Source: Bacteroidales bacterium
GTDB lineage: Bacteria > Bacteroidota > Bacteroidia > Bacteroidales > BM520
Assembly: GCA_031276035.1 (NCBI GenBank)
Contig: JAISNV010000001.1
Span: forward strand, 140,062-204,061
Reading direction: 5' to 3'
Length of the DNA: 64,000 nucleotides
Part shown: positions 6,772 through 54,084 of the stretch, piece by piece
Layout: the number at the start of each line of letters is the position of its first letter
Position numbering within the stretch: position 1 is the stretch's first letter
Notes under the pieces: generated by a model
Databases searched by the model: none
Told to the model about the DNA's origin: nothing
What the model saw: the letters and a program-made list of their open reading frames with translations, nothing else
Made by a program: the position numbers and the translations under genes

Positions 6772-6776
6772 TTTTG

Positions 6777-6849: not shown

Positions 6850-6884
6850 TATCAAAAAAAAAGAATGAACCCGTCATTCTTTTG

Positions 6885-6966
6885 TGGGAGGAGGTGGATT
6901 CGAACCACCGTAGGCTTCGCCAACAGATTTACAGTCTGCCCCATTTGACCGCTCTGGTATCCTCCC
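6885..6966 (-). tRNA. tRNA-Tyr (anticodon GTA), with a long variable arm
   Basis: 82 nt. The acceptor GGGAGGA pairs with TCCTCCC, the anticodon loop is CTGTAAA, and an extended variable arm precedes the T-loop TTCGAAT. Confidence 0.88.
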
Positions 6967-6978
6967 GTGTTTACTCAT

Positions 6979-7054
6979 TGGAGCCGATGGACGGACTCGA
7001 ACCGCCGACCGGCTGATTACAAATCAGCTGCTCTACCAACTGAGCTACATCGGC
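6979..7054 (-). tRNA. tRNA-Thr (anticodon TGT), with the 3' CCA encoded
   Basis: The acceptor GCCGATG pairs with CATCGGC, the anticodon loop is TTTGTAA and the T-loop is TTCGAGT. Discriminator T is followed by genomic CCA (6979-6981). Confidence 0.9.
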
Positions 7055-7515: not shown

Positions 7516-8427
7516 TTAAGCCCTCGGGTGAGTATGCTTATATACCTCTTTCATCTGTTCAATATTATTATGAGTATAAATCTGTGTTGCCGCCAAAGAC
7601 GAATGTCCTAACAACTCTTTCACAGTATTTATATCGGCACCTTTGTTTATTAATAACGTTGCAAAAGTGTGTCGTAATATATGCGGGCTTCGTTTTATTT
7701 TAAAAGTAACCCGATTTAACTCTTTCTTAACAATTCTATAAATTAATTTGGAATATGGCTTATAACCCTTATTCGATAAAATAAAATAATCATTATTATT
7801 CATCATCCCGAAACGTTCTACTCTATATTGAAAATACTCTTCAATCTCAACCTTAATCATATCGGTTAAAGGTAAAATCCTTTCTTTACTTCTCTTTCCC
7901 ATTACTTTAATCAATTTCGAACTTAAGTCAATATCCCCGACTTTCAAAGAAACTAATTCCGAACATCTGACTCCGGTTCCCACTAATATCATTATGACCA
8001 TCCTGTCGCGTAAAGATTCAAAGTTTTTTTCATCACAATCAACGCTTCTGATCAAATCTTCCAGCTCTTTAAATGATATAAACTCAGGCAGATTCTTGTC
8101 TCTTTTTAAACTTAGAATGTCAACGGCAGGATTATTGGAAATTAATTTCTTTTTATAAGCAAATCGATAAAAAGATTTTACACATGATATTTTTCTGTTT
8201 ATACTGGTCTTAATCATACCTGATTCTACCAGGCTAACAACCCATGATCTGAGCATATTATATGAAACTTTATCAATATGATCTATCTCATAATATTCAT
8301 TAATATATATTCGAAAATCATTTATGTCTCTTTGATAAGCGATAATTGTATGCTCAGAGTACCTTTTTTCATATTTTAAGTATGAAACGAAATTTTCTAT
8401 AGTATTGATAAACGATAATTTATCCAT
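7516..8427 (-). CDS. Tyrosine recombinase, XerC/XerD-like
   Basis: 303 aa with an N-terminal SAM-like domain. The catalytic motifs are 'GVRCSEL' (Arg), 'HILRHTFAT' (H-x-x-R) and 'LGHSSLAATQIYTH' (His and Tyr). Confidence 0.88.
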   Translation of the reverse strand: MDKLSFINTIENFVSYLKYEKRYSEHTIIAYQRDINDFRIYINEYYEIDHIDKVSYNMLRSWVVSLVESGMIKTSINRKISCVKSFYRFAYKKKLISNNPAVDILSLKRDKNLPEFISFKELEDLIRSVDCDEKNFESLRDRMVIMILVGTGVRCSELVSLKVGDIDLSSKLIKVMGKRSKERILPLTDMIKVEIEEYFQYRVERFGMMNNNDYFILSNKGYKPYSKLIYRIVKKELNRVTFKIKRSPHILRHTFATLLINKGADINTVKELLGHSSLAATQIYTHNNIEQMKEVYKHTHPRA

Positions 8428-35243: not shown

Positions 35244-37613
35244 CTAATCCTTCGAAAGATTTTCCATAGGATTACGAATAGATGCTTTGTAACTATTTAA
35301 GCTTACAACTGCAAGAATAATAGACACTATACACACTGCACACAAGATGTACACAAGAATTGAAATGTGTACTTTATCTATGAAACTTTTTTGCAGAAAA
35401 TGAGCTGCAATTATTGCTGCTGCAATTCCTATGATTACTGCAGGTATTATTGTCATCAAAATATTTTTGATAAATAATCCTTGAATATTAATAATAGTTG
35501 CGCCGTTAATTTTACGAATTGCAATTTCCGAGCGACGGCGATTGGTTTCGTCGTTTAAATACCCTATTAATCCTATGAGTGCTATAAGTAATGTTACTAT
35601 GCTACAGATAAGAACACTGGTGCGAAAAGTTCGGATAACATAAAATCCGGCTTTAAATTCTTCCTCGTAGTTTTTAACAATATAATGTTCATGGGTGATA
35701 AATTTTTCAAACACCGATCTTACATTTGCCATAATCCCCGGAGTTATACGGTGCATTTTAATTACAAAAATATAGTTGGAATTTTCGTCCGGCTCATAAA
35801 ATAATACTGACGGGCGAGTCTCTTTACTGAATCCGTCGGAACCTATATTAAAATCGCCAAAAACCCCGATGATCGTTTGATTCCCATGTTCTGAAACCAT
35901 AACATCTTTACCTACAACTCCATCATTCCAGCTCGCTTTTTCAGCCATCTTTTCAACAAAAGACTCACTAACAATCATCTGACCTAAGCCGGATTCTCCT
36001 TCAACAAAACCTTTTCCATCAATAATAGGAATTTCAAACACAGACAAGAAATTTTCATCAATGAAATATAAATCGGCAATATTGAATAATTCTTTTTCAT
36101 CATTTATTTCAGAAATATTATTTCCAGAAGCTTCACCCATCGGCAAAATAGTACAAAAAGCAACCTCTTTTACATCCGGCAGTTTTCTTAATTCCTGTGC
36201 AATATTATTTCTAACTTGCTTGCCTTGAATATATTCTTCAACAAATAATACATTTTCAAAAGAATAACCCTGATCGTCGCTAATAAGTTTATTGTATTGT
36301 AATCCGATTATTATCAATATTGTTATTAAAAAAGAAGTAGCTGCAACTTCAATGAATATTAATACAACTTTCCATCTTCTATGTGACTCTTTTGCTTTGC
36401 GAAAAGCTGCAGCTACCGGGATTTTTGAAAATAAATAGGATGGGACAAAGCCCGAAATAATAAAAATAATAGCACAAACCAATATAAGTATAAAGATTAT
36501 TTGTGGGGCAAATAAAGCCTGTATAGAAGTATCTAATAATTTTTCTATTGTGTTTTTTAATAGGATTATAGTTGTTGATGAAAGTATCAATGCCAAAATA
36601 AGATGTATAAAGGTTTCCATAAACATCAAACGTGATATGTTCACTCCCGAAGCGCCGTAACATTTGTGTACGGCAATTTCTTTAGTTCTGTTGACCAAGG
36701 AAGAAATCACAATCAGCGTATAATTTAAAATTGATGTTACCAAAAGTACGATTGCCAATACTCCTAAAATTAATATCAGCAACTTAACAACTTTATTATT
36801 TTGTGTATGAAGATCTCTTATATTTATCAGTGTATATCCGATTTTTATTCCGGCTTTAGTTAACATTTCCATATCTTGATTTCGCTCTTGCATAGCTAAA
36901 ATCTGTCCGGCAATAGATTCCGGTTTAACCCCTTTCGCTAATTTCACATAGCTGCAATATCTATCATTACCTATCCAATTTTCAGAACCGTCATAATAGC
37001 CCAAAGCAGAAATTGATTTCAAAGAAACTACTATATCATAATTTATATTAGCATTTTCCGGAATATCTTCAAAAACGCCGGCAATTGTTATTTGTCTGCT
37101 GCTATTAATATTAAAGGTAAATGTTTGTCCGATAACATTATCAATCCCTATTTTCTCCGCAATACTTCTCGAAACCAAACACTGCATCGGTTGAGATAAA
37201 ATTTCTTTCGGATTACCGATAAGAATCGGTCGCGATAAAACATCAAATACATTTTCATCTGCAAGATATACTTCTGCGGAAATGTAATCTTTATTTTCTG
37301 TATAAATTCCGAATCCTGTGACTGTTATGCGGGTTGCGCTCTCAACTTCCGGGATTTCATTTTTCATTCCCCATGCAATTGCACCCGGGGTCGAATTATA
37401 ACTATCCATTTCGGAATCATCGTATTTATAGTTAGAATAAATGCGATAGATGCGGTCGCTATCTGGATAAAAACGATCGTAACTTAACTCGAAGATAATT
37501 TTTGCAATGAGAACAAGAGCAACGGTTAATCCGATAGCTAAGGATAGAATTTTGGTTATGTTGTTTCCTTTTCTACGAAATGTATTTCGTAATGCAATAT
37601 TCAGGTTAGTCAT
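35244..37613 (-). CDS. ABC-transporter permease with a double FtsX/MacB-type module
   Basis: 789 aa with the same two-module architecture as 29328-31634. The C-terminus is '...YKASIRNPMENLSKD'. Confidence 0.85.
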   Translation of the reverse strand: MTNLNIALRNTFRRKGNNITKILSLAIGLTVALVLIAKIIFELSYDRFYPDSDRIYRIYSNYKYDDSEMDSYNSTPGAIAWGMKNEIPEVESATRITVTGFGIYTENKDYISAEVYLADENVFDVLSRPILIGNPKEILSQPMQCLVSRSIAEKIGIDNVIGQTFTFNINSSRQITIAGVFEDIPENANINYDIVVSLKSISALGYYDGSENWIGNDRYCSYVKLAKGVKPESIAGQILAMQERNQDMEMLTKAGIKIGYTLINIRDLHTQNNKVVKLLILILGVLAIVLLVTSILNYTLIVISSLVNRTKEIAVHKCYGASGVNISRLMFMETFIHLILALILSSTTIILLKNTIEKLLDTSIQALFAPQIIFILILVCAIIFIISGFVPSYLFSKIPVAAAFRKAKESHRRWKVVLIFIEVAATSFLITILIIIGLQYNKLISDDQGYSFENVLFVEEYIQGKQVRNNIAQELRKLPDVKEVAFCTILPMGEASGNNISEINDEKELFNIADLYFIDENFLSVFEIPIIDGKGFVEGESGLGQMIVSESFVEKMAEKASWNDGVVGKDVMVSEHGNQTIIGVFGDFNIGSDGFSKETRPSVLFYEPDENSNYIFVIKMHRITPGIMANVRSVFEKFITHEHYIVKNYEEEFKAGFYVIRTFRTSVLICSIVTLLIALIGLIGYLNDETNRRRSEIAIRKINGATIINIQGLFIKNILMTIIPAVIIGIAAAIIAAHFLQKSFIDKVHISILVYILCAVCIVSIILAVVSLNSYKASIRNPMENLSKD

Positions 37614-37655
37614 AAGAGTTAAGATTTAAAATAAAAATTATAATTTAATCATTCA

Positions 37656-38906
37656 TTAATTCAGAATCAGCACATCATTATCTCCATAATTATCGTATCC
37701 CGAAATAATTACCTTTTCACCGGGTTCAAGCCCTTCCAAAACCTCATAATAATTCGGGTTTTGCCTTCCGATTCTGATATTGCGTTTTGTTGCCTTAGTG
37801 CCTTCGGAATTGATTACGTAAATCCATGCGCCGCCGGTTTTGTGATAGAAATTACCACGGGGTATAATTAAAGCTTCTGTAGGCAATCCTAATTCAAGAT
37901 TTATGTAATATGTTTGTCCCGTACGAATGTTTTCAGGACGTTCGCCCGTAAATTGAAAATCTGTTCTGAACTGTCCGCCGCGAACATCAGGATAAACTTT
38001 GCTGACAACAACGGGATATTTCACGGATTGTCTTTCAAAGCTTCCGTTTAATCCGAAACGCACTCTATCAATATAATGTTCATCTATCATTGCTTCTATC
38101 TTATAATCGGAAAGATCATTAATTTGACCGATATTTGCGCCGGAATGCAAAGACTGTCCGAGAACAACTTCAAGATTTCCAAGTTGTCCGTTGATAGGAG
38201 ATTTCACATTGAGATTATCTTCCCTCTGGCGAATTAAAATCATGCTGCGGCGCATGCTTTCCAAGCTCTCTTCCATATTTTCAATCTGGATTGTTCTGTA
38301 AATTGAATCTTGTTTTTGTCGAGCCAAAACCAAATCGCGACTACTCATAGAAAATTCATAATCTTCCTTAGCCTGTAAATAATCTTCCAGAGAAATCAGT
38401 TTTTCATCATACAGTTTTTCATACTGTTTATTTTTCCTCTCTTTTCTTTCAACATCAAGATTAAGTTGTAAACGATTTTGCTCAAGGTCTAATTTCTGTT
38501 TTTCCATTTCGACAATTGTATTCCGAAGAAAATTTTCTTTCTCAGCCAAAGATGCCTCACTTTCGAGAATCGACAGAGCAAGTTGCGGATTACTTAAATG
38601 AAGAATAACATCGCCTTTTTTTACCATCCCGCCTTCTTCAATAACAATTTCATCGACCATTCCGCCTTCGAGCGGACTAAGTTGTAAAGTTGTAATAGGT
38701 TGAACCTGCCCATTTACACGAACATAATCATTAAACAACCCTTTTTCCACAGTACCTGTTAAAATCATTCTTCCGTCAACTTTCAATTTCGATTGATGAT
38801 CGCCGAAAATCAGCCAAGAAACAAAAGCTATAACAAATACACCTCCTAAAATATAGGGAATATGTTTTCTCTTAATACCTTTTTTCTTTTCAATTACTCT
38901 ATCCAT
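37656..38906 (-). CDS. Periplasmic adaptor (HlyD/MacA family)
   Basis: 416 aa with an N-terminal TM, a lipoyl-like 'VKKGDVILHL', a long coiled coil and beta-barrel C-terminal domains. Confidence 0.82.
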   Translation of the reverse strand: MDRVIEKKKGIKRKHIPYILGGVFVIAFVSWLIFGDHQSKLKVDGRMILTGTVEKGLFNDYVRVNGQVQPITTLQLSPLEGGMVDEIVIEEGGMVKKGDVILHLSNPQLALSILESEASLAEKENFLRNTIVEMEKQKLDLEQNRLQLNLDVERKERKNKQYEKLYDEKLISLEDYLQAKEDYEFSMSSRDLVLARQKQDSIYRTIQIENMEESLESMRRSMILIRQREDNLNVKSPINGQLGNLEVVLGQSLHSGANIGQINDLSDYKIEAMIDEHYIDRVRFGLNGSFERQSVKYPVVVSKVYPDVRGGQFRTDFQFTGERPENIRTGQTYYINLELGLPTEALIIPRGNFYHKTGGAWIYVINSEGTKATKRNIRIGRQNPNYYEVLEGLEPGEKVIISGYDNYGDNDVLILN

Positions 38907-38921
38907 CGTATTATTTTTTAA

Positions 38922-40253
38922 TTATTCTTGATCAATATAATGTTCGCCTTTATAATATTTTACAATTCTACTTTTTATCATATACTGTAAATGAGAATTC
39001 AACATTTGTGCTTTTGCCGCAAGTAGTTGATTAGAGCTGCTATGCAATTCCAAAATACTTAACAAACCTTCTTCGTATTTTCTTGTATTTAATTTATGTG
39101 CGAGGTCTTGCGCTTCCACTTGTTTTTTGGATTGATAAAATTCCTTAACGGCGCCGTTGAGATCTTGAATCGCTTTCAATACTTCAGTTTCAACCTCATT
39201 AATTTGATCCATATATTCATATTGCGATATTGCAACAAGATTCTTATTTCGCGAAACATCTCCCTGTAGAGACAATGCGCTGAAAATAGGAATACTAACT
39301 CCAACGTAAACATATTGACCTTGACGATTGACCAATTGTTCCCAGAATTTTGTATTTCCCTCGGCACCAATATAATTAACGTAGCCTGTACTGTATCCGC
39401 CTTCTAAACTGATACGAGGAAGAAGTCGCCATTTTGCCGTATTCAATTGATATTGTGCAATTTTTACACTTTGTTCACCTTTTCTTAAACTCGGCAAAAA
39501 AGCTTTTGCCGACGAAATCAAAGATTCCGGAGAAGATGTACTGAAATAAACCTCATCATTATTCAATATTACAGTATCTGTAATTAAATTTTCATCCTTA
39601 GGAAAAAACATAATACCTTTTAAAACTAAAATTGCTTGTTCCAGATTATTTTCTTGATGGATAAGATTGAGATCGTTGGTTGCTACAATTGCTTCGGCTT
39701 GCAAAACGTCGGACTGTCCGCTGAGACCCAATTCCTCACGAAGTTTAATACTTTTAAGATTATTTTCGCTCTCCTGAAGTTGTTCTTTGGCAAGATTCAA
39801 CATTCCGGCATAATAGAGAACATTATAATAAGCTTGCATTGTTTGCAAGCATATATCATCTTGCAAAAGCTTTGCATCTTCGGTGCCCATCAATCGGGAA
39901 ATCTTAGCTATTTTATAATTGTTAACGGTTGAGAATCCGTTAAAAATAGTGTATGTTCCGTAAATTCCGTAAGAATTATTAAAAGAAGTCGTATTAGTAT
40001 AAGTATTAGTTTCAGGGTCAATGGAACGACCGAAATTTGAGGTGGCACTGGCCGAAGCGGAAATTGAAGGAATAAAATTAAGATAAGATTCCCTGAAATC
40101 TAAATCCGTATTTTTATTTTTTGCTTCTTGAATTTTATATTTCGGAGAGTTTTCTATTGCATATCTCATACAATCTTTCAAATTGTAGATCTTTTGTGCA
40201 AAAGAAAAATTTGTTACGATCAGTAGGGATAAAATCAATATTGTTTTTCGCAT
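38922..40253 (-). CDS. TolC-family outer-membrane efflux protein
   Basis: 443 aa with a signal peptide '...NFSFAQ' and two helical/barrel repeats. It is the first gene of a TolC-HlyD-FtsX operon with 15- and 42-nt gaps. Confidence 0.82.
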   Translation of the reverse strand: MRKTILILSLLIVTNFSFAQKIYNLKDCMRYAIENSPKYKIQEAKNKNTDLDFRESYLNFIPSISASASATSNFGRSIDPETNTYTNTTSFNNSYGIYGTYTIFNGFSTVNNYKIAKISRLMGTEDAKLLQDDICLQTMQAYYNVLYYAGMLNLAKEQLQESENNLKSIKLREELGLSGQSDVLQAEAIVATNDLNLIHQENNLEQAILVLKGIMFFPKDENLITDTVILNNDEVYFSTSSPESLISSAKAFLPSLRKGEQSVKIAQYQLNTAKWRLLPRISLEGGYSTGYVNYIGAEGNTKFWEQLVNRQGQYVYVGVSIPIFSALSLQGDVSRNKNLVAISQYEYMDQINEVETEVLKAIQDLNGAVKEFYQSKKQVEAQDLAHKLNTRKYEEGLLSILELHSSSNQLLAAKAQMLNSHLQYMIKSRIVKYYKGEHYIDQE

Positions 40254-40411: not shown

Positions 40412-42451
40412 TTAATTATAGATTAGCCATTCGGCATCACCTTGCAGGACTTTTTCAAAAGCTTTATTTCCTTTATCTGCTTTTTCTTCTAAATTTTCTG
40501 TCCACTTTTTATCTCTAAGTATCATTCTCATATTATATTTAGCATATGCATTATGTAGCTTTTGATCGTATTTACCGATTTTTATATAACTCGAATGCGG
40601 ATGAACAATATTGCTGATTGTTAATGAGGCAGGATACAAATCCTTGCCGTTTATGGAAAAGATAACCGTAGGCTGTTGCAAAAAGTAATAAATATTTGTA
40701 ATATACATTGATCCGAAAGCAGGCATATTTTTATTATTAATTTTTACGAGATTATTATCCTCCGAAGCAATTGATACCGAAAATTTCTTATAAGTAGAAC
40801 GGTAACCTATTATCATATTATCTGTTTTTATATTCCTAAAATCGGGAGTTAGTTCATTCCCTTTACATTTTATGAGGGCAATATAAGAGTCATAAGATTT
40901 TGAAGCTTGAGAATAATAGAAAATATTTACTGTATCTTCGGTTTCGTGAAATTTATTATAAAAATTTTTATAGTCATTATATTCATTTATTTTAATTCCA
41001 TAAATCTTTGTTAAAACGGCACGTATAGATGAATTTTTCTGCGCTGTTATACTCTTCCCGAAAATTGTCTTAATAAAATATAGATTCTGTGTACATACAA
41101 CATCATTCTCTTTCAAATTAGCGGCTTCTTTAAAGTCATTAAGAATTAACAACCGTTCTTGTGAAATGCTAACATCTTTAGCAATTACTTCATTTGTATA
41201 TTGTGTCAGCAAAGTAGAAATAAACAACAATATTGCAATAATGCAATTAATTACGACAAAAATAATTTTATTTTTACGTGACAGCAGAATTATAAGATAA
41301 AATAATGATGTAATAACAATTATTATAGCCAGAAAAGAGTAATACAAAGTAACATAATCCATACGAAGTGACAAATAAACTTTTTCGGAAAGAACCAATG
41401 GAATCTGTGGTAGTACAACTGCAATAGCACTTATCAGCAATAAAAACAACACTTTCTTTTTATTAGTGTTTTGAGGTAATAATTTTAAAATAAATAAATA
41501 AAGTAAAACAATAATAAAACTTTTTATATAAGCTAAGATACCTGCATTTTTCAGATAAAACATTAACGAATATTCTGTAGAAATACTATCTGAAAAAGGA
41601 ATAAAAATCAATTTATAATTGAAGAAAGAAGCTAAAGGGCTTGATTTTACAATAATATTCATTAACATTTGTAATGATTTTACGAATGAAATACCCTCGC
41701 TGAATCTATTTCCGACATATTTTGAAGGATATAAATTCAAATACCAAAAATACACTATAATGTAGGCAATACCAAAAAATACAAAAGGTCCTATTTCTTT
41801 CAAAAATTTTAATATATTTTCTTTTTTTAAAAAAGTTTTCGGCTTATATTTTGAAAGAATAATAATTAAAACCAGCACATAATACATCAATAAACTTTCT
41901 TGAAATAAACTCGCAATTGCCATTAAAACCGAAGAAATAATTATATAATAATATTTTCCTGTTTTATGATAGTTAAAAATAAGATGTATTGAACTTAATA
42001 CTAAGACAATAGCTACGGAAAAATAAAACGGATAACAAGTAACCGAAGATCCAGCTCCTCCAAATTGAAATAATGCACAAAATAATAATAATCCCAACAT
42101 AACCAAGAAATTATCATATCCGGCCCTTTTTATTAATGAAAAAAGTAAAATAATTCCAACAATTAAGGGAATCACTTTCATAGTATAATAGAACCAGGGG
42201 GCATTAATTAAATATGGAAGAAAATATATCCATCTGACTAATAAAAAGTAAAATCGTCCGGTAAATTTTGCATATCCTAAACCATCCGCAAACCACAAAT
42301 TTATGTCCGATTTTATAAAATTTTCTAAATCATCAGCAGCAATAAAACTCACTTTAAATAAAGGTAAGAAAGTTAGTACAACTACAATTAACAGCAAAAA
42401 ATCAAAAAGTATTTTTGTTGATTTTTTGTAAATATCTGTTTCTATTTTCAT
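40412..42451 (-). CDS. Polytopic membrane protein, putative GT-C-fold glycosyltransferase (ArnT/PMT-like), with a C-terminal soluble domain
   Basis: 679 aa with about 11-12 hydrophobic helices in the first ~415 aa. An acidic 'AADDLE' motif directly follows TM1, where GT-C enzymes carry their DD/DE motif. The non-membrane C-terminal domain is about 260 aa. Confidence 0.4.
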   Translation of the reverse strand: MKIETDIYKKSTKILFDFLLLIVVVLTFLPLFKVSFIAADDLENFIKSDINLWFADGLGYAKFTGRFYFLLVRWIYFLPYLINAPWFYYTMKVIPLIVGIILLFSLIKRAGYDNFLVMLGLLLFCALFQFGGAGSSVTCYPFYFSVAIVLVLSSIHLIFNYHKTGKYYYIIISSVLMAIASLFQESLLMYYVLVLIIILSKYKPKTFLKKENILKFLKEIGPFVFFGIAYIIVYFWYLNLYPSKYVGNRFSEGISFVKSLQMLMNIIVKSSPLASFFNYKLIFIPFSDSISTEYSLMFYLKNAGILAYIKSFIIVLLYLFILKLLPQNTNKKKVLFLLLISAIAVVLPQIPLVLSEKVYLSLRMDYVTLYYSFLAIIIVITSLFYLIILLSRKNKIIFVVINCIIAILLFISTLLTQYTNEVIAKDVSISQERLLILNDFKEAANLKENDVVCTQNLYFIKTIFGKSITAQKNSSIRAVLTKIYGIKINEYNDYKNFYNKFHETEDTVNIFYYSQASKSYDSYIALIKCKGNELTPDFRNIKTDNMIIGYRSTYKKFSVSIASEDNNLVKINNKNMPAFGSMYITNIYYFLQQPTVIFSINGKDLYPASLTISNIVHPHSSYIKIGKYDQKLHNAYAKYNMRMILRDKKWTENLEEKADKGNKAFEKVLQGDAEWLIYN

Positions 42452-42545: not shown

Positions 42546-43907
42546 ATGCAAAAAGGTTCTATACTGGTTGTTGATGACAACAAAGCAATTCTTTCGGCGC
42601 TCGATTTACTTTTGCCCGAATATTTTAAAGAGATTAAAATGCTTTCGAATCCCAATACAATTATCTCTACAATTAAATCGACTTTGTTTGATGTTGTACT
42701 TCTCGATATGAATTTCTCAGCAGGGGTGAATAGCGGCAACGAAGGTTTGTACTGGCTATCCGAAATAAAGAGACATTCTCCGCTCTCGGAAGTTGTTCTT
42801 TTTACTGCTTATGCCGATATTGACCTCGCGGTAAACGGTATCAAACGAGGTGCTTTCGATTTTGTTGTAAAACCTTGGGAAAATGCAAAACTGGTTTCTA
42901 CCCTATTTGCGGCTTACGAACTCTCAAAATCAAAAAAAGAAGTTAAACAACTCAAGGAAATCAAAAAAGAGTTCAGGGCAGATAGTGAAATGTATTGGGG
43001 AAATTCTTCCCAAATGCAAAAAATTCTTTCTCTTGTAGAAAGAATCGCAAAAACTGATGCCAATATTCTTATCACCGGCGAAAACGGCACCGGAAAAGAC
43101 GTGTTGGCAAATGAAATACATAAAAAATCATTCCGGAATAATGAAAGTATGGTTACTGTTGACATAGGAGCGCTGACAGATTCTCTTTTCGAAAGTGAAC
43201 TCTTCGGTCATGTAAAAGGTTCCTTTACTGATGCTAAAACCGATAGAGCCGGAAAATTCGAAGTGGCTTCCGGCGGAACCTTATTTCTCAATGAAATAGG
43301 AAATATTCCATTGCATCTGCAAGCTAAACTTCTAACCGTAATTCAAAATAAATCAATAAGTAGAGTCGGCGGCAACACAGTAATTCCTGTCAATATCCGA
43401 TTGATAAGCGCAACTAATAAAGATCTCGACGAAATGGTCAGAAATAACGAATTTCGAGAAGATTTACTTTACAGAATCAATACTATCCATATTGCTCTTC
43501 CTCCTTTGAGACAACGAAGAGATGAAATTATTCCGCTCGCAGAATTATTCTTGAAAAAATACGCTTTAAAATACGGGAAAAACATCAACGGAATTACTGC
43601 TGATGCTCAGGAAAAGTTAAAAAATTATTCTTGGAATGGAAATATCAGAGAGCTGCAACATGCTGTTGAAAAAGCGGTTATCCTTTCAGACGGGGCAAAA
43701 TTAACTTCAAACGATTTTCTTCTTATCGAAAAAAGTGAAATTCCGTTCAGCGGCAAACTAAATTCAACACTCACTCTCGAAGATATGGAAAGGGAAATGA
43801 TATCACAAGCTTTAATTGACTACAACGGTAATGTGTCTATGATAGCTCAACAATTGGGAATTACCAGACAAACATTATATAACAAACTAAAAAAGTATCA
43901 ATTATGA
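42546..43907 (+). CDS. Sigma-54-dependent response regulator (NtrC/AtoC/ZraR family bEBP)
   Basis: 453 aa. The receiver is '[11 protein letters not shown]...DVVLLDMNF', Walker A is '[13 protein letters not shown]', the sigma-54 contact loop 'GSFTDA' is a GAFTGA variant, and the C-terminal Fis-type HTH is '[23 protein letters not shown]'. Confidence 0.92.
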
Positions 43908-44024
43908 TGTTATTTAGTTTTTGTATTCTGTTTACTTTATTCATCAATTTTACCAAGATAAATATATTATTACTGAGAAATTAAAATATCCTCAAAATAT
44001 CTGTAAATATTTAAATAACCTCCA

Positions 44025-45332
44025 ATGCGAAATAAATTAGTCATACTCTTAATATTCCTGTTGGTTTTCACCATCGGCTCAGTGTTGCTCTTTGTCTATG
44101 AAAAATATCCTTTTGCAATTATTTCTACCATAATAAGTTTAATTCTTCTTTTTACTACAATCAGACAATTTAGAAATTCTGTCGAAAAACTTAATTATTT
44201 ACTGAGTTCTATTGAGAACGACGATTTTGCTTTCAGATTTTCCGACAATATAGAAAGAAGTTTTAAGGAAGAATATTATTTCAGCTATACTTTGAACAGA
44301 CTAAAAGATATAATGGCAAATGAAAAGAAGTTGGCAAGAGAGCAGGAAAAATATTTTGAATTGATGCTCGATAATGTAATTACGGGAATTATAACCGTTT
44401 CGGAACGCGGCGATGTTGTTTTTTGTAATAACAAAATTTACGAAATGTTCAACCTTTCCGTTCTTACTCATATAGATCAACTTAATCGCGTAAGCGAAGA
44501 ATTGGCGAAGAAAATTTCGGAAATCACTCCCGATGAAAATCCCACAGTATCTTTTTACACAGAGAGCGGTGAAGTTTTTCTTTCTTTGAAATGCAATTAT
44601 GTTACTATCAGAGATAAAAAACTAAAAATTATTGTAATAAATGATATCGGACAAGAATTGGAAGAAAAAGAACTGGAATCTTGGACTCGTTTGATCCGTG
44701 TTCTCACACATGAAATAATGAACACTGTTACTCCGATTTCTTCTCTCAGCGAAACACTATCAAAACATTACGGAAGTACAAACGAAGAAATAAAACAAGG
44801 ACTTGATGTTATAAGCTCTACAAGTAAAGGACTTATTTCCTTTGTTGATTCGTATAGAAAACTTACACGAATTCCGGAACCGATTAAAAAAGTTGTTTCT
44901 GTAAAATCACTTCTAAATAAATTAATTACATTAAATCATGATGATATTGAAAATTTCAACATTAATATTTCGATAAACATGGATAATGAAGATGTTATGA
45001 TTTATGTTGATGAGAATCTGATTCTTCAAGTTTTAATCAATCTAATGAAAAATGCTGTTTCAGCTTTAAAAGAAATCAGTTATGAAAGATTTATCAATTT
45101 TAATGTTTTTGTTGATAATAATGAAGATGTTGTTATCGATATGATTAACAACGGAATGTCTATTAGCAAGGAATTACAGGAGCAAATCTTTATTCCTTTC
45201 TTTACAACGAAAAACACCGGTACCGGAATAGGATTGAGTATTTCTCGACAAATTATGAAGTTGCATAACGGTACTCTTAAACTCAAAATTTCCAATGAAA
45301 AAGAAACTGTTTTTACTTTAATCTTTAGATAA
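44025..45332 (+). CDS. Sensor histidine kinase with two N-terminal TM helices, a PAS-like domain, HisKA and HATPase_c
   Basis: 435 aa. The H-box is 'VLTHEIMNTVTPISSL', the N-box 'LINLMKNAVSA' and the G-boxes 'INNGMSIS' and 'GTGIGLSISRQIM'. Confidence 0.9.
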   Translation: MRNKLVILLIFLLVFTIGSVLLFVYEKYPFAIISTIISLILLFTTIRQFRNSVEKLNYLLSSIENDDFAFRFSDNIERSFKEEYYFSYTLNRLKDIMANEKKLAREQEKYFELMLDNVITGIITVSERGDVVFCNNKIYEMFNLSVLTHIDQLNRVSEELAKKISEITPDENPTVSFYTESGEVFLSLKCNYVTIRDKKLKIIVINDIGQELEEKELESWTRLIRVLTHEIMNTVTPISSLSETLSKHYGSTNEEIKQGLDVISSTSKGLISFVDSYRKLTRIPEPIKKVVSVKSLLNKLITLNHDDIENFNINISINMDNEDVMIYVDENLILQVLINLMKNAVSALKEISYERFINFNVFVDNNEDVVIDMINNGMSISKELQEQIFIPFFTTKNTGTGIGLSISRQIMKLHNGTLKLKISNEKETVFTLIFR

Positions 45333-45333
45333 A

Positions 45334-48297
45334 ATGAATACTACAACACCAAAAGCCGACTTAATTTACGATATTCCCGATTCGGATTTCGATAACTTGA
45401 TGTTGCATCGAATTTACAATGTGCTTTTTATAGCCAGTGAATACGATGCCTTTGTACTTGAAAATGACGGGAGAATAGACGAACAGATTTTTAATGAATA
45501 TGTTAAGTTGAATCTGCGACATCCGCCACATTTTATTCATGCACCCAATGAGCTCAGTGCCAGAAAAATTCTGAAAAAAGTAAATATCGACTTGGTAATT
45601 ATTTTATATACGGCCGGAGAAAGTAATCCTGCCGCATTCGCTAAAGAAATCAAAGATAAATATAACGATTTACCGGTTGTTGCTCTAACTCCATTTCCGC
45701 AAGATATTATCAGCAAGCTGAAAAAGAAAGATATTTCTTATTTCGATTATGTTTTCAGCTGGCTCGGAAACGCCGATATAATGTTGGCAATAATTAAACT
45801 TATTGAAGATAAAATGAATTTAAAGCACGACGTGCTGAAAGTAGGTGTACAAGTTATTCTTCTTGTAGAAGATTCTATAAGATTTTATTCTTCATATCTG
45901 CCGAATATTTACAAAATCGTCTTTAAACAATCAACCGATTTTATGGCTGAAGGTTTGAATGATCATGAGAAAATGCTTCGTATGCGCGGACGACCGAAAA
46001 TTATTTTGGCGACTAATTATGAAGAAGCTGAACAGTACTTTGAAAAATACAAGGATAACATGCTCGGTGTAATAACTGATGTTAGATATGAAAAAGATGG
46101 TGTTGAAGACGATCAGGCCGGAGTGAAATTGATAAAAGCAATTAGAAATGAAGATAAATTCATGTCTATTCTCATGCAATCTTCCGAAGGAAAAAATGCG
46201 GAAAAAGCAAAAGAATTACATGTCGGATTTATCAACAAAAACTCTAAAACAATTTCGAGAGAGCTGAAAAATTTTATGCAAAAGTATTTCGCCTTCGGCG
46301 ATTTTATCTTTGTTAACCCTAAAACGGGTGAGGAAATCGGAAGTGCATCGAATATTAAAACCTTAATGGAAATGATGCAAACCATTCCCGATGACAGTTT
46401 GAGATATCATATCAACAATAATCACTTTACCAAATGGTTGATGGCCCGCGCTTGTTTTCCGGTTGCACGACTGTTTAAAGAGCTTTCCGAAAAAGATTTC
46501 AAAGATTTGGATCACGTTCGAGATTTTATGTTTGATGTACTTGCCAAATACAGGATAAATAAATCTCACGGAGTAATAGCCGAGTTTACAAGCGAACGCT
46601 TTGATGGTTATTTCAGCTTTGCAAGAATCGGCCACGGTTCAATCGGCGGAAAAGCAAGAGGTTTGGCTTTCCTCGACCAACTGTTGCAAAGGCATAAAGA
46701 ATTTTCCGAATTCGGCGAAATCAATATTGCCATTCCCAGAACTTTAGTCATTTGTACAGATATTTTTGACGAGTTTATGGAAAGTAATTCTCTATATCCG
46801 ATTGCTTTGTCGAATGTAGAAGATGAAGATATTTTAAATGCTTTCGTCAATGCCAAACTACCTTCCAGAATCAAAGACGACCTAAGGGCATTTTTAAAAA
46901 TCATCAAAAAGCCTTTGGCAATACGTTCTTCTTCAGTTCTTGAAGATTCATATTATCAACCTTTTGCGGGGATTTACTCTACTTACATGATTCCCTATAC
47001 GGACGATCATAACTTTATGTTAAAAATATTATCAATAGCTATCAAAAGCGTTTATGCATCGGCTTTTTATAAGGATTCCAAAGCATATACAACAGCTACA
47101 TCAAATATGATTGACGAGGAGAAAATGGCTATAGTTCTTCAGGAAGTCTGCGGCGAGCAACATGGAGACATTTATTTCCCGACAATCTCAGGTGTTGCAC
47201 GCTCAATTAACTATTATCCTATCGGAAATGAAAAATTTGAAGACGGAATTGCCTCTATAGCTTTCGGACTTGGAACGTATATTGTACAAGGTAGCAGGTC
47301 ATTAAGATTCTCGCCCAGACATCCGCATAATATTTTGCAACTTTCAACCAATGAAATGAGTTTACGCGACACTCAAAAAACTTTCTTCGCTCTTGACACC
47401 AATCCTAATAGTTTCAAAATCTCAACCGACGAAGGAATTAACATTAAACATTGTAATATTAACTACGCTGCCGAACTTAATGCCACAACAAATGTAATTT
47501 CTTATTACGATTATGATAATGCGAATATAATCAGCATGATGCCGGACGGCCATAATTTCAGAAGAGTAGTAACTTTCGCTAATGTCCTGAAATATGATGT
47601 TTTTCCTTTGGCACAGATTTTGGATCTGATTCTGACTACCGGACAACAAGAAATGAACAAGCCTGTTGAGATCGAATTTGCCGTTGATTTTTCTTCCGGA
47701 TTAACGAATACAACTTTCTATATTCTGCAAATTCGCCCGATTGTAGACAACAATACCTTTCTGGATGAAGATATAATGCAAATTCCGGAAAATAAAACAA
47801 TTCTTACAAGTAAACAAGCTTTGGGACAAGGTGTAATTCCGAAAATAAAGCATATTGTTTATGTAAAGCCGCAGAGTTTTAATCCGGCAAAATCACATGA
47901 GATTGCAAGAATGATAGACAAAATTAACTCCGAATTTATCAAAGAAGATACTTATTATGTTTTAATTGGTCCCGGCAGATGGGGCTCAAGCGACCCATGG
48001 CTCGGAATTCCAACCAAATGGACAAATATTTCCAATGCGAAACTGATTGTAGAATCAAGTTTAAGTAATTATAGGATAGAGCCAAGCCAAGGCACTCATT
48101 TCTTCCAGAATCTCACATCTTTAGGAGTCGGATATTTCACAATTAATCCGTATATAAATGACGGTTATTTTAATTTGGAATTTTTAGATAAGCAGCAGGC
48201 AATTTTCGAAAACGAATACATAAGAATAGTAAAATTCGATAAAGAATTAACAATAAAGATCGACGGTCGAAAAACATACGGCATTGTGATGATGTGA
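45334..48297 (+). CDS. Receiver-domain protein fused to a PPDK/PEP-synthase-type ATP-grasp (PEP/pyruvate-binding) domain; function unknown
   Basis: 987 aa. Residues ~25-130 form a degenerate receiver-like domain. Residues ~170-300 form a receiver with 'ILLVEDS', 'GVITDVRY' and 'ILMQSS'. The PPDK_N motifs are 'GGKARGLAFL', 'IRSSSVLEDSYYQPFAGIYSTY', 'MAIVLQEV', 'SGVARSINYYP' and 'FGLGTYIVQG'. I see no 'GGxTSHAA'-type swivel motif. The start lies 1 nt after the kinase stop codon. Confidence 0.7.
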   Translation: MNTTTPKADLIYDIPDSDFDNLMLHRIYNVLFIASEYDAFVLENDGRIDEQIFNEYVKLNLRHPPHFIHAPNELSARKILKKVNIDLVIILYTAGESNPAAFAKEIKDKYNDLPVVALTPFPQDIISKLKKKDISYFDYVFSWLGNADIMLAIIKLIEDKMNLKHDVLKVGVQVILLVEDSIRFYSSYLPNIYKIVFKQSTDFMAEGLNDHEKMLRMRGRPKIILATNYEEAEQYFEKYKDNMLGVITDVRYEKDGVEDDQAGVKLIKAIRNEDKFMSILMQSSEGKNAEKAKELHVGFINKNSKTISRELKNFMQKYFAFGDFIFVNPKTGEEIGSASNIKTLMEMMQTIPDDSLRYHINNNHFTKWLMARACFPVARLFKELSEKDFKDLDHVRDFMFDVLAKYRINKSHGVIAEFTSERFDGYFSFARIGHGSIGGKARGLAFLDQLLQRHKEFSEFGEINIAIPRTLVICTDIFDEFMESNSLYPIALSNVEDEDILNAFVNAKLPSRIKDDLRAFLKIIKKPLAIRSSSVLEDSYYQPFAGIYSTYMIPYTDDHNFMLKILSIAIKSVYASAFYKDSKAYTTATSNMIDEEKMAIVLQEVCGEQHGDIYFPTISGVARSINYYPIGNEKFEDGIASIAFGLGTYIVQGSRSLRFSPRHPHNILQLSTNEMSLRDTQKTFFALDTNPNSFKISTDEGINIKHCNINYAAELNATTNVISYYDYDNANIISMMPDGHNFRRVVTFANVLKYDVFPLAQILDLILTTGQQEMNKPVEIEFAVDFSSGLTNTTFYILQIRPIVDNNTFLDEDIMQIPENKTILTSKQALGQGVIPKIKHIVYVKPQSFNPAKSHEIARMIDKINSEFIKEDTYYVLIGPGRWGSSDPWLGIPTKWTNISNAKLIVESSLSNYRIEPSQGTHFFQNLTSLGVGYFTINPYINDGYFNLEFLDKQQAIFENEYIRIVKFDKELTIKIDGRKTYGIVMM

Positions 48298-48379
48298 TAA
48301 TCGTACTTTTTGAATGATTAAATATACTGAAATAGACAAAAAATCTAAACTTTAAACTTTAAACTCTCAACTATTATAT

Positions 48380-48387
48380 TATCTTTG
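48380..48387 (+). promoter_or_regulatory. -7 box TATCTTTG for the 5-alpha-reductase-like gene
   Basis: An exact TAnnTTTG match, 28 nt upstream of ATG 48416. Confidence 0.55.
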
Positions 48388-48415
48388 CAGTCGATTTTTA
48401 TTAAATTAACATATA

Positions 48416-49228
48416 ATGACATCATTGAATCTCCTTAATTATTTTCTTGACAATTACAATCTTTTTTTAATTATTATGGCAGCCTTAGCGGTTGTTGTTT
48501 TTATTGTTCTTAACTTTATTGAAGTTGGTTACGGTATTACTATAAATAAAAAGTGGGGTGCCGCAATAAATAATAAAATCGGATGGCTGTGCATGGAAGT
48601 TCCGGTTTTTGTTTTAATGACAGTATTGTGTTTATTATCACCTAGAATAATTCCATTTAAAATATCCACATCATTAGTTCCGCTGATTTTTTTCTTATTC
48701 TTTCAGATACATTACATTAGAAGATCATTAATATTTCCGTTTTTGTTAAAAGGTAAAAGTAAAATGCCAGTAACTGTAATGTTGATGGGATTTTTATTTA
48801 ACATTTGCAATGCTTTGATGCAAGGCGGATGGTTTTTTTATAAATCGCCGGTAGATATGTACACTCTAAGTTGGTTGCTTACTCCACAATTTATTATCGG
48901 AACTATTATTTATTTCGGAGGAATGATTATTAACATCCAATCCGATAAAATTATCCAAGATTTACGTACGCCCGGAGATACAAAACATTACTTACCCACA
49001 AAAGGTTTATTTAAACATGTAACCGGAGCGCATTATTTCGGTGAAGTCATTGAATGGGTGGGTTTCGCAATATTAACTTGGTCGCCTGCAGGCGCTGTAT
49101 TTGCATTATGGACATTTGCAAATCTTGTTCCGCGCGCAAATGCTGTTTATCACAGCTATCAAAAAATGTTCGGTTACGACACCATCAAAGATAAAAAATT
49201 AAAAAGAATATTTCCTTATATATATTAG
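48416..49228 (+). CDS. 3-oxo-5-alpha-steroid 4-dehydrogenase (SRD5A) family membrane reductase
   Basis: 270 aa with about 6-7 TM helices. The C-terminal 'PTKGLFKHVTGAHYFGEVIEWVGFAILTWSPAGAVFALWTFANLVPRANAVYHSYQKMF...LKRIFPYIY' aligns by eye with the mammalian SRD5A1/2 C-terminal pattern 'GGLF.YV..AN(Y/F).GEI.EW.G.A..(S/T)WS...FA......RA...H..Y...F..YP..RK..IPF(I/L)F'. Confidence 0.75.
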   Translation: MTSLNLLNYFLDNYNLFLIIMAALAVVVFIVLNFIEVGYGITINKKWGAAINNKIGWLCMEVPVFVLMTVLCLLSPRIIPFKISTSLVPLIFFLFFQIHYIRRSLIFPFLLKGKSKMPVTVMLMGFLFNICNALMQGGWFFYKSPVDMYTLSWLLTPQFIIGTIIYFGGMIINIQSDKIIQDLRTPGDTKHYLPTKGLFKHVTGAHYFGEVIEWVGFAILTWSPAGAVFALWTFANLVPRANAVYHSYQKMFGYDTIKDKKLKRIFPYIY

Positions 49229-49463
49229 TATATTAGTTTGAAAATTATAAAGGTATAAAGATTATCTAATCTTTAAAATTTAAATTGATTTTCTTGTAAA
49301 ACATCATTATACTACAATTAAATATAAATCGTTTCGGATATTTTTATATTCTATCTATTTGATTTACCGGTTACATTTCATGGAGAAAGGGCAATTTCTA
49401 TTTGCATGATTATAAATCAATTCTATCAATCTAATTGATTTTATACATTTCTAATGCTTTTTG

Positions 49464-49471
49464 TATATTTG
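49464..49471 (+). promoter_or_regulatory. -7 box TATATTTG for the OYE-SDR pair
   Basis: An exact TAnnTTTG match, 18 nt upstream of ATG 49489. Confidence 0.55.
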
Positions 49472-49488
49472 CAGATAAATTTTTTATT

Positions 49489-50718
49489 ATGTCCGAATCT
49501 TTATTATTTACACCGGCAAAACTTGGCCCCTTAACTCTTAGAAATCGTACTATCAGAGCTGCTGCTTTCGAAGGCATGTGCCCTAATAACAATCCGAGCC
49601 AACAATTACACGATTATCATGTTTCTGTTGCGGCAGGAGGTATCGGAATGACTAACCTTGCATATTCATCGGTAACAAAAAACGGATTATCTTTTCCGCA
49701 TCAATTATGGTTAAGAAAAGAAATCATTTCGGATCTTAAGAAAATAACCGACGATATTCATAAAGAAGGTGCGGCGGCATCGGTACAAATTGGACACTGC
49801 GGAAATATGTCGAAAAGAAGTGTTGCCGGACAATTGCCGATATCCGCCTCATACGGATTTAATGTCTATTCTCCAACCTTTGTAAGGAAGATGAGAAAAG
49901 ATGAAATAACGGAAGTTGCAAAAGCTTTCGGAACAGCCGTAAATTTTGCACGCGATGCCGGATTTGACGCCGTGGAAGTTCATGCCGGTCATGGTTATTT
50001 ACTGAGTCAGTTTTTATCAAAATATACAAATCATCGTCATGATGAATATGGCGGAAGTTTAGAAAATCGAATGCGGTTTATGAGTATGGCAATAAATTAC
50101 GCTATGGAAGCCGCTAAAAATGATATGGCCGTTACTGTGAAAATGAATATGAACGACGGATTCAAATTTCTTGGCGGTATGCAAACCGACGATTGTATTT
50201 TGGTTGCCAAGAGGCTTGAGTCTTTGGGTGTTCACGGATTAGTTCTGAGCGGCGGATTCGTAAGTCATGCGCCTATGCACGTCATGTACGGAAGTATGCC
50301 TACAAAGACAATGTCGTATTACATGAGTCCTTCAATAATTAAACCACTTGCAAAATATTTTGGAAAGATTTTAGTTCCTACTGTTCCCTTTAAAGAAGCT
50401 TATTTCTATGAAGACGCTTTAAAATTCAGAGAAGCTGTTAAGTTGCCTTTAATTTATGTAGGAGGATTAGTTGCAAGGGATAAGATTGATATGGTTTTAA
50501 ATTCAGGATTTGAATTTATTGCCATGGCAAGAGCCCTTGTAAACGAACCCGGATTTGTTAACCGGATGAAAGAAGAAGGTAATATCAGATGTAATTGCGA
50601 ACATGTAAATTATTGCATCGGAAGAATGTATTCTAAAGATATGGTTTGTCATCAACACGTTAAAGAAGAATTACCTAAATGTATAAAAAAGGAAATAGAA
50701 AAGGCAAAACGGCATTAG
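49489..50718 (+). CDS. Old Yellow Enzyme family NADH:flavin oxidoreductase (FadH/BaiH-type TIM barrel) with a C-terminal Cys cluster and no FAD/NAD(P) domain
   Basis: The start is taken at ATG 49489 ('MSESLLFTPAKLGPLTLRNRTIRAA'). The core motif is 'EVHAGHGYLLSQFLSKYTNHRHDEYGGSLENRMRF'. The Cys cluster 'CNCEHVNYCIGRMYSKDMVC' lies about 20 aa from the C-terminus. Confidence 0.85.
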   Translation: MSESLLFTPAKLGPLTLRNRTIRAAAFEGMCPNNNPSQQLHDYHVSVAAGGIGMTNLAYSSVTKNGLSFPHQLWLRKEIISDLKKITDDIHKEGAAASVQIGHCGNMSKRSVAGQLPISASYGFNVYSPTFVRKMRKDEITEVAKAFGTAVNFARDAGFDAVEVHAGHGYLLSQFLSKYTNHRHDEYGGSLENRMRFMSMAINYAMEAAKNDMAVTVKMNMNDGFKFLGGMQTDDCILVAKRLESLGVHGLVLSGGFVSHAPMHVMYGSMPTKTMSYYMSPSIIKPLAKYFGKILVPTVPFKEAYFYEDALKFREAVKLPLIYVGGLVARDKIDMVLNSGFEFIAMARALVNEPGFVNRMKEEGNIRCNCEHVNYCIGRMYSKDMVCHQHVKEELPKCIKKEIEKAKRH

Positions 50719-51485
50719 TAACTGGAGCGGCTTCCGGAATCGGTTATGCTTTTGCTGAGAAGCTGGCGCAAGACGGATATGACTTACTGATTTCTGATCT
50801 TCAAGAAGAAAAAACAATTGAAGTTGCTGATAATCTACATAATAATTATGCAATTGATGTAAAATATCTTATATTAGATTTATCCAGAATTGATGCGGCT
50901 GAAATCATATATGAATTTTGTTGTAATAAGAACATTGAAATCTATATTTTAATTAGTAATGCCGGAAGATTTGCTTTTGATTCGATAACGGATATCGAAA
51001 CAGATAAATATGATTCGATCTTGCAATTACACATGAATACACCTGCAAAGTTATGCAGATTATTCGGCAAAGACATGAAAAAAAGAAGAAATGGTTATAT
51101 TCTAACCGTATCCTCATTATCCGCATGGATGCCCTATCCATATTTATCACTTTATTCTTCAACAAAAAGATTTCTCAGAACATTCTCAAGGTCAATACAC
51201 TTCGAGTTCTCAAATTATAATGTAGGAGTTACAACAATTTGTCCAGGGGCAATAGATACGGACCTTTACAATTTAAAACCACATTTGCGGAAAATCGCAC
51301 GAAATCTCGGTATAATGATGAAGCCGGAAATTTTAGCAGAAAGATCATTAAAAAAAATGCAAAGAAAACGTGTAACTTATATTCCTGGTCTGATAAACAA
51401 AATTGCCATACCTATTTTATTAATAATTCCTGTTAGGATTATTACTTTCTTTACACGAAAAATAGCAGGAGATAAGTTTAATTAA
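50679..51485 (+). CDS. Short-chain dehydrogenase/reductase (classical SDR) with a C-terminal hydrophobic anchor
   Basis: 268 aa with 'TALVTGAASGIGYA' (TGxxxGxG), 'ISNAG', the catalytic 'S...YSSTK', and the C-terminal 'IAIPILLIIPVRIITFF'. Its start overlaps the OYE gene by 40 nt in another frame. Confidence 0.85.
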   Translation: MYKKGNRKGKTALVTGAASGIGYAFAEKLAQDGYDLLISDLQEEKTIEVADNLHNNYAIDVKYLILDLSRIDAAEIIYEFCCNKNIEIYILISNAGRFAFDSITDIETDKYDSILQLHMNTPAKLCRLFGKDMKKRRNGYILTVSSLSAWMPYPYLSLYSSTKRFLRTFSRSIHFEFSNYNVGVTTICPGAIDTDLYNLKPHLRKIARNLGIMMKPEILAERSLKKMQRKRVTYIPGLINKIAIPILLIIPVRIITFFTRKIAGDKFN

Positions 51486-53996: not shown

Positions 53997-54069
53997 GGCC
54001 CCGTAGTTAAATTGGATAGAATGCGAGATTCCGGTTCTTGTGGTGGGGGTTCAAGTCCCTCCGGGGTCA
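53997..54069 (+). tRNA. tRNA-Arg (anticodon CCG)
   Basis: 73 nt. The acceptor GGCCCCG pairs with CGGGGTC (one G-U pair). The anticodon stem is CGAGA/TCTTG with loop TTCCGGT, and the T-arm is GGGGG-TTCAAGT-CCCTC. The D-stem has only 3 bp. Confidence 0.82.
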
Positions 54070-54084
54070 CTAACATATTTTTGC

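Follow-up and report, generated by a model that had tools for sequence, protein, structure and literature searches.

A probable lineage-specific copy of the Bacteroidales steroid A-ring module with a type 1 short-chain dehydrogenase in third place

Three adjoining genes in a 64,000-nucleotide (nt) stretch of DNA from a Bacteroidales bacterium (assembly GCA_031276035.1, contig JAISNV010000001.1, positions 140,062 to 204,061; hereafter the window, 64 kb in all) are probably a lineage-specific copy of the steroid A-ring module of the Bacteroidales. They form three plus-strand open reading frames (ORFs) of 270, 409 and 268 amino acids (aa) and, as an earlier note made from the sequence had recognised, encode reductases of three different families side by side on one strand, with matches to PF02544, PF00724 and PF00106: a steroid 5-alpha-reductase (5AR) of the SRD5A type, an Old Yellow Enzyme (OYE) and a short-chain dehydrogenase/reductase (SDR). 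The assignment draws on homology, catalytic residues, fold, synteny and the orthology of the 5AR and the OYE to a validated enzyme pair. The third gene is of another SDR type than its counterpart in the characterised cluster.

Features of the trio region:
48380-48387, plus strand: candidate Bacteroidota-type -7 promoter box TATCTTTG, 28 nt 5' of the 5AR start codon (sequence reading)
48416-49228, plus strand: 5AR, predicted SRD5A1/2-type integral-membrane NADPH-dependent 3-oxo-delta4-steroid 5-alpha-reductase, 270 aa (PF02544, structure matches)
49229-49488, plus strand: 5AR-OYE spacer of 260 nt, holding the second TAnnTTTG box
49464-49471, plus strand: second TAnnTTTG box TATATTTG (sequence reading)
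49489-50718, plus strand: OYE, single-domain flavin mononucleotide (FMN) enzyme, orthologue of the '5-beta-reductase' (5BR), TIM barrel plus Cys-rich tail (PF00724)
50590-50649, plus strand: Cys motif C-x-C-x-H-x3-C-x10-C in the OYE tail, candidate metal or Fe-S site
50679-51485, plus strand: classical SDR of cluster-linked type 1, 268 aa, C-terminal tail hydrophobic and predicted helical, presumably a reductase of ketosteroids associated with the membrane (PF00106)

The first two genes and their conservation

The 5AR matches PF02544 with an E value of 3.5e-37 (128 bits) and aligns with the bacterial PbSRD5A (PDB 7C83; E 2.8e-46, residues 14-267) and with human SRD5A2 (PDB 7BW1; E 6.8e-29, residues 47-269). 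The resemblance to steroid 5-alpha-reductases previously noticed in its last ~80 aa is therefore real, and it extends over nearly the whole protein, at an identity of 27-32%. The SRD5A2 catalytic pair E57/Y91 is present as E61/Y100, both residues being invariant in 38 homologues, and most of the NADPH contacts are kept (SRD5A2 N160, D164, R171, E197, R227 and Y235, corresponding to N173, D177, R184, E210, R240 and Y248). An AlphaFold2 (AF2) model of the protein (pLDDT 86.4, pTM 0.85) predicts the seven-helix SRD5A fold, with Foldseek TM scores of 0.78/0.84 to 7C83 and 0.76/0.83 to 7BW1, the next matches reaching at most 0.45. Unlike SRD5A2 and PbSRD5A, the subclade of the window 5AR has an additional loop between helices 2 and 3. 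On its alignments and modelled fold, the first gene encodes a genuine SRD5A1/2-type reductase. A placement in the DUF1295 or isoprenylcysteine methyltransferase (ICMT) clade, which the earlier note had considered, was not borne out: DUF1295 (20.3 bits, under the Pfam cut-off of 20.4), PEMT (18.4 bits, also under its cut-off) and ICMT (Foldseek TM 0.26) are ruled out by the Pfam scores and the structural comparison.

The NCBI annotation starts the 5AR at M21, giving a protein of 250 aa, whereas the upstream ATG (window 48416-48475 region) gives 270 aa. The longer form is favoured by the length of the homologues (262-270 aa), by the PbSRD5A alignment, which begins at residue 14, and by a helix predicted at residues 3-32; the deposited sequence, beginning at M21, is probably missing part of that helix.

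The second gene product matches PF00724 (E 7e-52). Its best NCBIfam matches are to the N-terminal halves of mycofactocin FadH/OYE (183 bits; cut-off 793) and BaiCD (172.7 bits; cut-off 825), the latter over model positions 4-257 of 642, and at 409 aa, compared to about 640 in BaiCD/FadH, it lacks the entire C-terminal flavin adenine dinucleotide (FAD)/NAD(P)H domain. The earlier description of the protein as an ene-reductase of the FadH/BaiCD/BaiH type hence applies to its FMN barrel, which is nearest to the N-terminal halves of these enzymes, but not to the protein as a whole. Identification as BaiCD, bilirubin reductase or mycofactocin OYE was rejected, the scores being far under the respective cut-offs and the barrel domain alone matching. 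The active-site motif HAGHGY is found in 67 of 69 OYE orthologues.

The OYE tail bears RCNCEHVNYCIGRMYSKDMVCHQH, and the core of this segment, C-x-H-x-NYC-x10-C, is present in all 67 full-length orthologues (67/67). A fourth Cys lies two residues upstream of the core in 23 of them, up to four residues downstream in 38, at both places in two and at neither in four. The segment sits where enzymes of the BaiCD/BaiH/FadH/TMADH type carry their 4Fe-4S motif, although its spacing, C-x-C-x6-C-x10-C, is non-canonical compared to the C-x2-C-x2-3-C-x11-13-C of that group. It also shows a weak positional alignment (E 0.043) with the Cys motif (CxxCxxC) of histamine dehydrogenase 6DE6, which we take to be the Fe-S motif of that enzyme. 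The tail may thus form a four-ligand metal or Fe-S site.

Clusters with the same gene order (5AR, single-domain OYE designated 5BR, SDR) have been described as Bacdor_03091/03090/03089, Parmer_04016/17/18 and Bvu_1964/65/66 (Li et al., bioRxiv 10.1101/2021.01.08.425963). In Escherichia coli lysates, Bacdor_03090 converted 3-oxolithocholic acid (3-oxoLCA) to 3-oxo-delta4-LCA and Bacdor_03091 converted 3-oxo-delta4-LCA to 3-oxoalloLCA, while purified Bacdor_03089 made isoallolithocholic acid (isoalloLCA) and deletion of Parmer_04016-18 led to the loss of all products (bioRxiv 10.1101/2021.01.08.425963). According to a review, the same cluster was studied by Sato et al., and disruption of the Parabacteroides merdae 5AR blocks the formation of allo-LCA derivatives (PMC10382948). 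For both the 5AR and the OYE of the window, the reciprocal best hit is the corresponding gene of the Parabacteroides clusters (loci L065 and L087), at 60% and 65% identity, respectively, and the Parabacteroides contigs have exactly the three-gene layout. By these comparisons, made via congeneric proxies since B. dorei and P. merdae themselves are not among the 80 loci retrieved (see below), the two window genes are orthologues of the published 5AR/5BR pair.

Homologues of the 5AR number 3,169 at E <= 1e-5. A scan of species-representative genomes gave at least 550 confirmed 5AR loci, the best 80 of which were fetched; these cover Odoribacteraceae, Rikenellaceae, Tannerellaceae, Bacteroidaceae, Muribaculaceae, Lentimicrobiaceae, Paludibacteraceae and unclassified Bacteroidales. 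ORF clustering was carried out on 85 loci and gene order was counted on 68 informative loci. The only recurring families in the unbiased clustering were the 5AR (85 loci), the OYE (72) and the SDR (66 loci, 102 copies), confirming that the trio is co-conserved across relatives. No further family was found in more than 13 of the 85 loci, those present reflecting shared synteny in one clade, and no conserved regulator or transporter was detected near the cluster in this set. With A, O and S denoting the three genes, the layouts were A-O-S-S (31 loci), A-O-S (24), A-O (10) and a solitary A (9); a few loci contain insertions. The OYE follows the 5AR in 59 of the 68 informative loci, and 14 of the 68 share the window-like layout, i.e., an OYE and a type 1 SDR only (see below for the SDR types). 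Adjacent 5AR and 5BR genes have likewise been reported in most of 127 human gut Bacteroidales strains, being absent from Prevotellaceae, B. nordii and O. splanchnicus (bioRxiv 10.1101/2024.03.08.584156). The cluster is therefore common in Bacteroidales, contrary to the expectation that it would be unusual for a bacterial chromosome.

In some lineages, including digester metagenome-assembled genomes (MAGs) and Lentimicrobiaceae, the 5AR is followed directly by one or two SDRs without an OYE, and in others it stands alone (loci without OYE or with 5AR alone: L010, L018, L020-L022; L023, L055, L062, L072, L075, L085), indicating that the module is modular rather than fixed.

The same data bear on a competing reading put forward with the bile-acid one, in which the trio would be the reductive half of eukaryote-like fatty-acid elongation, i.e., a TECR enoyl reductase plus a ketoreductase (KAR), working with the downstream acpP-fabF genes. 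TECR does belong to the same superfamily as SRD5A (PF02544), the TECR/Tsc13 and KAR pair also joins a membrane reductase to an SDR, and acpP and fabF lie 215 nt downstream of the trio on the same strand. However, the match of the 5AR to a solved TECR (art-1, 22of) is merely marginal (E 0.029, 17 bits, compared to 2.8e-46 and 6.8e-29 for the steroid 5-alpha-reductases), and among the 85 loci a single non-redundant relative, the nearest one (L004, the same contig as L006), has acpP-fabF after the trio. The conserved partners of the 5AR are the OYE and the SDR only, with no conserved fatty-acid gene linkage, and the series acpP-fabF-rnc, then tRNA-Arg, asd and ribF, with fabD alone on the other strand, is an ordinary housekeeping arrangement. 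Similarity and synteny together effectively refute the elongation reading, to which we attach practically no credence.

The third gene and the two SDR types

The SDR matches PF00106 (E 3.8e-39), and the TGAASGIG, NAG and Y159-x3-K163 motifs of the family are intact; Asp40, after strand 2, suggests NAD as the cofactor. Its C-terminal segment is hydrophobic (17-residue Kyte-Doolittle maximum, 2.49), and the AF2 model (pLDDT 90.7) predicts helices at 238-249 and 252-267. The SDR start (50679) precedes the OYE stop (50718), giving a 40-nt overlap. An overlap of this size is also found in L004, L006, L007 and L008, with 46 nt in L009 and 4 nt in most other lineages, a conservation that indicates translational coupling. 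The overlap and the hydrophobic C terminus were thus correctly noticed beforehand. In place of the single C-terminal membrane helix described with them, two helices are predicted; the tail may either cross the membrane or merely anchor the protein.

Given its position upstream of acpP and its top PDB sequence matches, which are FabG proteins at about 1e-22, the SDR could be taken for a housekeeping FabG in an operon of the fabG-acpP-fabF type, unrelated to the two ene-reductases. Against this, the FabG models of NCBIfam score only 98-106 bits against cut-offs of 222-298, the 40-nt overlap with the OYE gene is conserved, orthologues follow the OYE in 46 of the 68 informative loci without acpP, and the hydrophobic C-terminal extension is not a feature of FabG. 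The family scores, the linkage to the OYE and the extension rule out this assignment, which we regard as extremely improbable.

The 102 cluster-linked SDRs and that of the window (103 in total) split into two groups with about 19% identity between them. Type 1 (n = 56, including the window SDR) normally lies directly after the OYE. Type 2 (n = 47), of about 283 aa and often annotated as 'retinol dehydrogenase-12', generally takes the place of the second SDR, and the Parabacteroides, B. intestinalis and Coprobacter clusters have no other SDR. The types also differ in C-terminal hydrophobicity, with a mean Kyte-Doolittle maximum of 1.50 for type 1 compared to 0.22 for type 2. The type 2 SDR that follows the OYE in Parabacteroides and B. 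intestinalis aligns with the window SDR over just 58 aa (E 6e-4), with no significant full-length match, and no type 2 gene was found in the 64-kb window. Among the type 1 homologues searched, none carries a functional name. Because Parmer_04016-18 are consecutive and the Parabacteroides clusters hold type 2 only, the validated 3-beta-HSDH (a 3-beta-hydroxysteroid dehydrogenase) of Parabacteroides and Bacteroides is almost certainly a type 2 protein. Judged by these comparisons, the window SDR is not an orthologue of that enzyme (Bacdor_03089/Parmer_04018).

This distinction bears on whether the window encodes the complete isoalloLCA pathway of P. merdae and B. dorei, with the SDR acting as the 3-beta-HSDH and 3-oxoLCA being turned into isoalloLCA. 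The gene order is that of Parmer_04016-18 and Bacdor_03091-89, and the 5AR and the OYE are orthologous to the validated pair, in agreement with the earlier proposal of a 5AR/flavin 5BR/3-beta-HSDH module as far as the homologous cluster and its first two genes are concerned. The third gene departs from it. The window SDR is of type 1, compared to the 'retinol dehydrogenase-12-like' type 2 that alone occupies the Parabacteroides and B. intestinalis clusters, and the type 2 gene is missing from the window; a complete isoalloLCA module is therefore not shown. According to a review that cites Sato et al., production of isoalloLCA requires '3betaHSDH-II' along with 5AR (PMC11487953), so that two paralogues had already been recognised. 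The relative L007, moreover, comes from the termite hindgut, where bile acids are absent. In view of the above, we consider it unlikely that the trio constitutes the complete isoalloLCA pathway.

Junctions, promoter boxes and neighbouring genes

The OYE start was placed at ATG 49489, which was called independently on an identical Logan contig, a mechanical ORF list having given TTG 49435; the NCBI contig identical to the window includes protein MDR2083517.1. At 260 nt, the spacer between the 5AR and the OYE is unusually long compared to a median of 16 nt in relatives.

Both TAnnTTTG boxes that had been read as promoters are present. The motif is not enriched in the AT-rich window, however (101 sites, compared to 97.7 +/- 9.3 expected), so that the motif alone proves nothing as promoter evidence. 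The two boxes differ in conservation: TATCTTTGC is the sole conserved block 5' of the 5AR in a comparison of the window with its two nearest relatives, L006 and L007, which supports the first box as a candidate promoter, whereas the box 5' of the OYE is common to the window and L006 only and is not evident in L007. The 260-nt spacer showed no similarity to the genes inserted at the same spot in L006 or L007, and the idea that it is an insertion scar was dropped. Rfam and tRNA scans gave no match in the trio region.

The clade of the window has a hot spot for insertions between the 5AR and the OYE. In L004/L006 (1982-5222), two minus-strand genes of 262 and 638 aa, without Pfam match, are inserted there; L005 has a different gene set, including an RHS-repeat protein; and further inserts of 1.9-2.4 kb are found in L007 (8811-11046), L012 and L015. 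The 260-nt spacer of the window resembles none of these. Just 5' of the -7 box of the 5AR, the window has three tandem 7-mers (AAACTTT AAACTTT AAACTCT; 48347-48367), and the termite-gut relative L007 has three tandem 8-mers (TGAATAAC) at the equivalent place, at about 7925-7950. These repeats may represent an operator or may have arisen by chance in AT-rich DNA.

A regulatory trio lies directly upstream of the cluster (window 42546-48297, plus strand). It comprises a response regulator of the sigma-54 type (REC + Sigma54_activat + HTH_8), a histidine kinase resembling AtoS (44025-45332) and a protein of 987 aa (45334-48297) with a weak receiver domain and a PPDK_N ATP-grasp domain, without the phosphoenolpyruvate-utilising or TIM domains. 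Only 1 nt lies between the stop of the histidine kinase gene and the ATG that follows. Homologues of the kinase occur about 5 kb 5' of the 5AR in L011, L013, L032 and L046; in the nearest relative, neither the kinase gene nor that for the REC-PPDK_N protein is conserved upstream.

Elsewhere in the window, a tripartite efflux gene set (35244-40253, minus strand) encodes a MacB-type ABC permease, an HlyD-family adaptor and an outer-membrane efflux protein, and the 679-aa ORF adjoining it (40412-42451, minus strand) has no Pfam match. Five tRNA genes (Trp; then Thr, Gly, Tyr and Thr) are clustered at 5299-7054 on the minus strand. Downstream of the trio, the longest ORF for aspartate-semialdehyde dehydrogenase (GTG 54040) overlaps tRNA-Arg(CCG) at 53997-54070; its true start is probably ATG 54085 (MKVSVIG...).

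Habitat, substrate and proposed mechanism

The best genome match is 'Odoribacter sp. OttesenSCG-928-L07' (83%), from a genome series presumably obtained from cockroach-gut single cells, followed by Th196P3bin138 (76%). The close relative L007, a termite-hindgut MAG, is the nearest relative with a documented habitat. The window-like layout is found in these relatives, in three 'RUG' MAGs, presumably from the rumen, and in a water-buffalo abomasum MAG, and a 'ruminal_MAG' carries the 5AR-OYE pair. To our knowledge, both the termite hindgut and the rumen lack bile acids, which makes sterol-derived 4-en-3-ones or other steroids the more likely native substrates. Th196 designates the humus-feeding termite Termes hospes (PMC7024585). 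With the termite-hindgut MAG as the sole close relative of documented habitat, the bile-acid substrate first proposed is doubtful for this organism, and the native substrate here is probably another 3-oxo-delta4 steroid or neutral sterol, the habitat sample being small and confounded with phylogeny.

The same distribution could be accounted for by a module acting on a non-steroid, membrane-soluble alpha,beta-unsaturated carbonyl, such as a plant terpenoid, a quinone derivative or an endogenous lipid, the steroid activity of the gut strains then being promiscuity. The occurrence of the module in termite-gut, rumen and digester Bacteroidales would fit this explanation, as would the lack of any transporter or regulator conserved with it and the broad promiscuity of OYEs as ene-reductases. 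Conversely, the function so far assigned to the SRD5A1/2 branch concerns 3-oxo-delta4 steroids, for animals, plants (DET2) and the bacterial PbSRD5A alike, and the two catalytic residues that contact the 3-ketone are retained. An essential endogenous lipid is also hard to reconcile with the patchy occurrence of the module, which Prevotellaceae, O. splanchnicus and B. nordii lack. A non-steroid substrate is thus, in our view, rather improbable.

Several observations weigh against reading the trio as a copy of the steroid A-ring module. Identity to the assayed proteins is just 55-65%, as measured via congeneric proxies. The SRD5A2 residues N193 and H231 are replaced by H206 and V244 in the window 5AR. 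As set out above, the third gene product is not orthologous to the validated 3-beta-HSDH; the solved proteins closest to it by sequence and fold are generic classical SDRs, FabG or hydroxybutyrate dehydrogenases. Unlike in the isoalloLCA cluster, the 5AR has its own promoter box and lies 260 nt from OYE-SDR, where the nearest relatives hold whole inserted genes, so that co-expression is not guaranteed. Finally, the module is present in habitats without bile acids, and the close relative of the window lives in the termite gut, compared to the vertebrate gut for the isoalloLCA cluster. With these points taken into account, we still judge it likely that the trio represents this module in a lineage-specific copy.

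In the scheme proposed for such a module, the direction in which each step runs, what the SDR does and with which stereochemistry, and the nature of the substrate are inferred. Using FMN, the OYE (5BR) would interconvert 5-beta-3-ketosteroids and 3-oxo-delta4 enones, and the membrane-embedded 5AR would draw on NADPH for an alpha-face reduction of the delta4 bond, with the 3-ketone polarised by Glu61 and Tyr100. Together, the two enzymes would flatten the A/B-ring junction, taking it from the bent 5-beta to the 5-alpha form, or would simply saturate dietary 3-oxo-delta4 steroids. The type 1 SDR, presumably membrane-anchored and translationally coupled to the OYE, would most likely carry out 3-oxo/3-hydroxy reduction or oxidation on the same hydrophobic substrates. 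As the OYE has no counterpart of the BaiCD/FadH domain for NAD(P)H and FAD, its Cys-rich tail may harbour a metal or Fe-S centre through which the FMN communicates with an external redox partner.

A further, more tentative possibility is that the combination of 5AR, Cys-rich OYE and type 1 SDR is the ancestral form of the module in Bacteroidales of bile-free habitats, where it would act on steroids other than bile acids (4-en-3-ones from dietary sterols, phytosteroids or ecdysteroids, for example). The type 2 3-beta-HSDH would then be a later addition or replacement in vertebrate-gut lineages that gave rise to the isoalloLCA pathway, and the OYE would be a truncated FadH-type enzyme that retains a metal or Fe-S centre and trades electrons with a separate partner rather than with NAD(P)H. 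We find this scenario conceivable, while leaning against it.

The cluster itself is the published Bacteroidota 5AR/5BR module behind the immunomodulatory and anti-Clostridioides difficile allo-bile acids. What the window adds is a caution for annotation: the combination of 5AR, 5BR and SDR does not equal the isoalloLCA pathway, since two unrelated SDR types occupy the third place and just one of them is apparently validated. As a termite-gut MAG and rumen bacteria, which do not encounter bile acids, carry the module, gene-abundance surveys that take it as a bile-acid marker may over-interpret their counts. The remaining interest lies in the uncharacterised type 1 SDR, in the Cys-rich, truncated FadH-like OYE and in the occurrence of the module in bile-free habitats.

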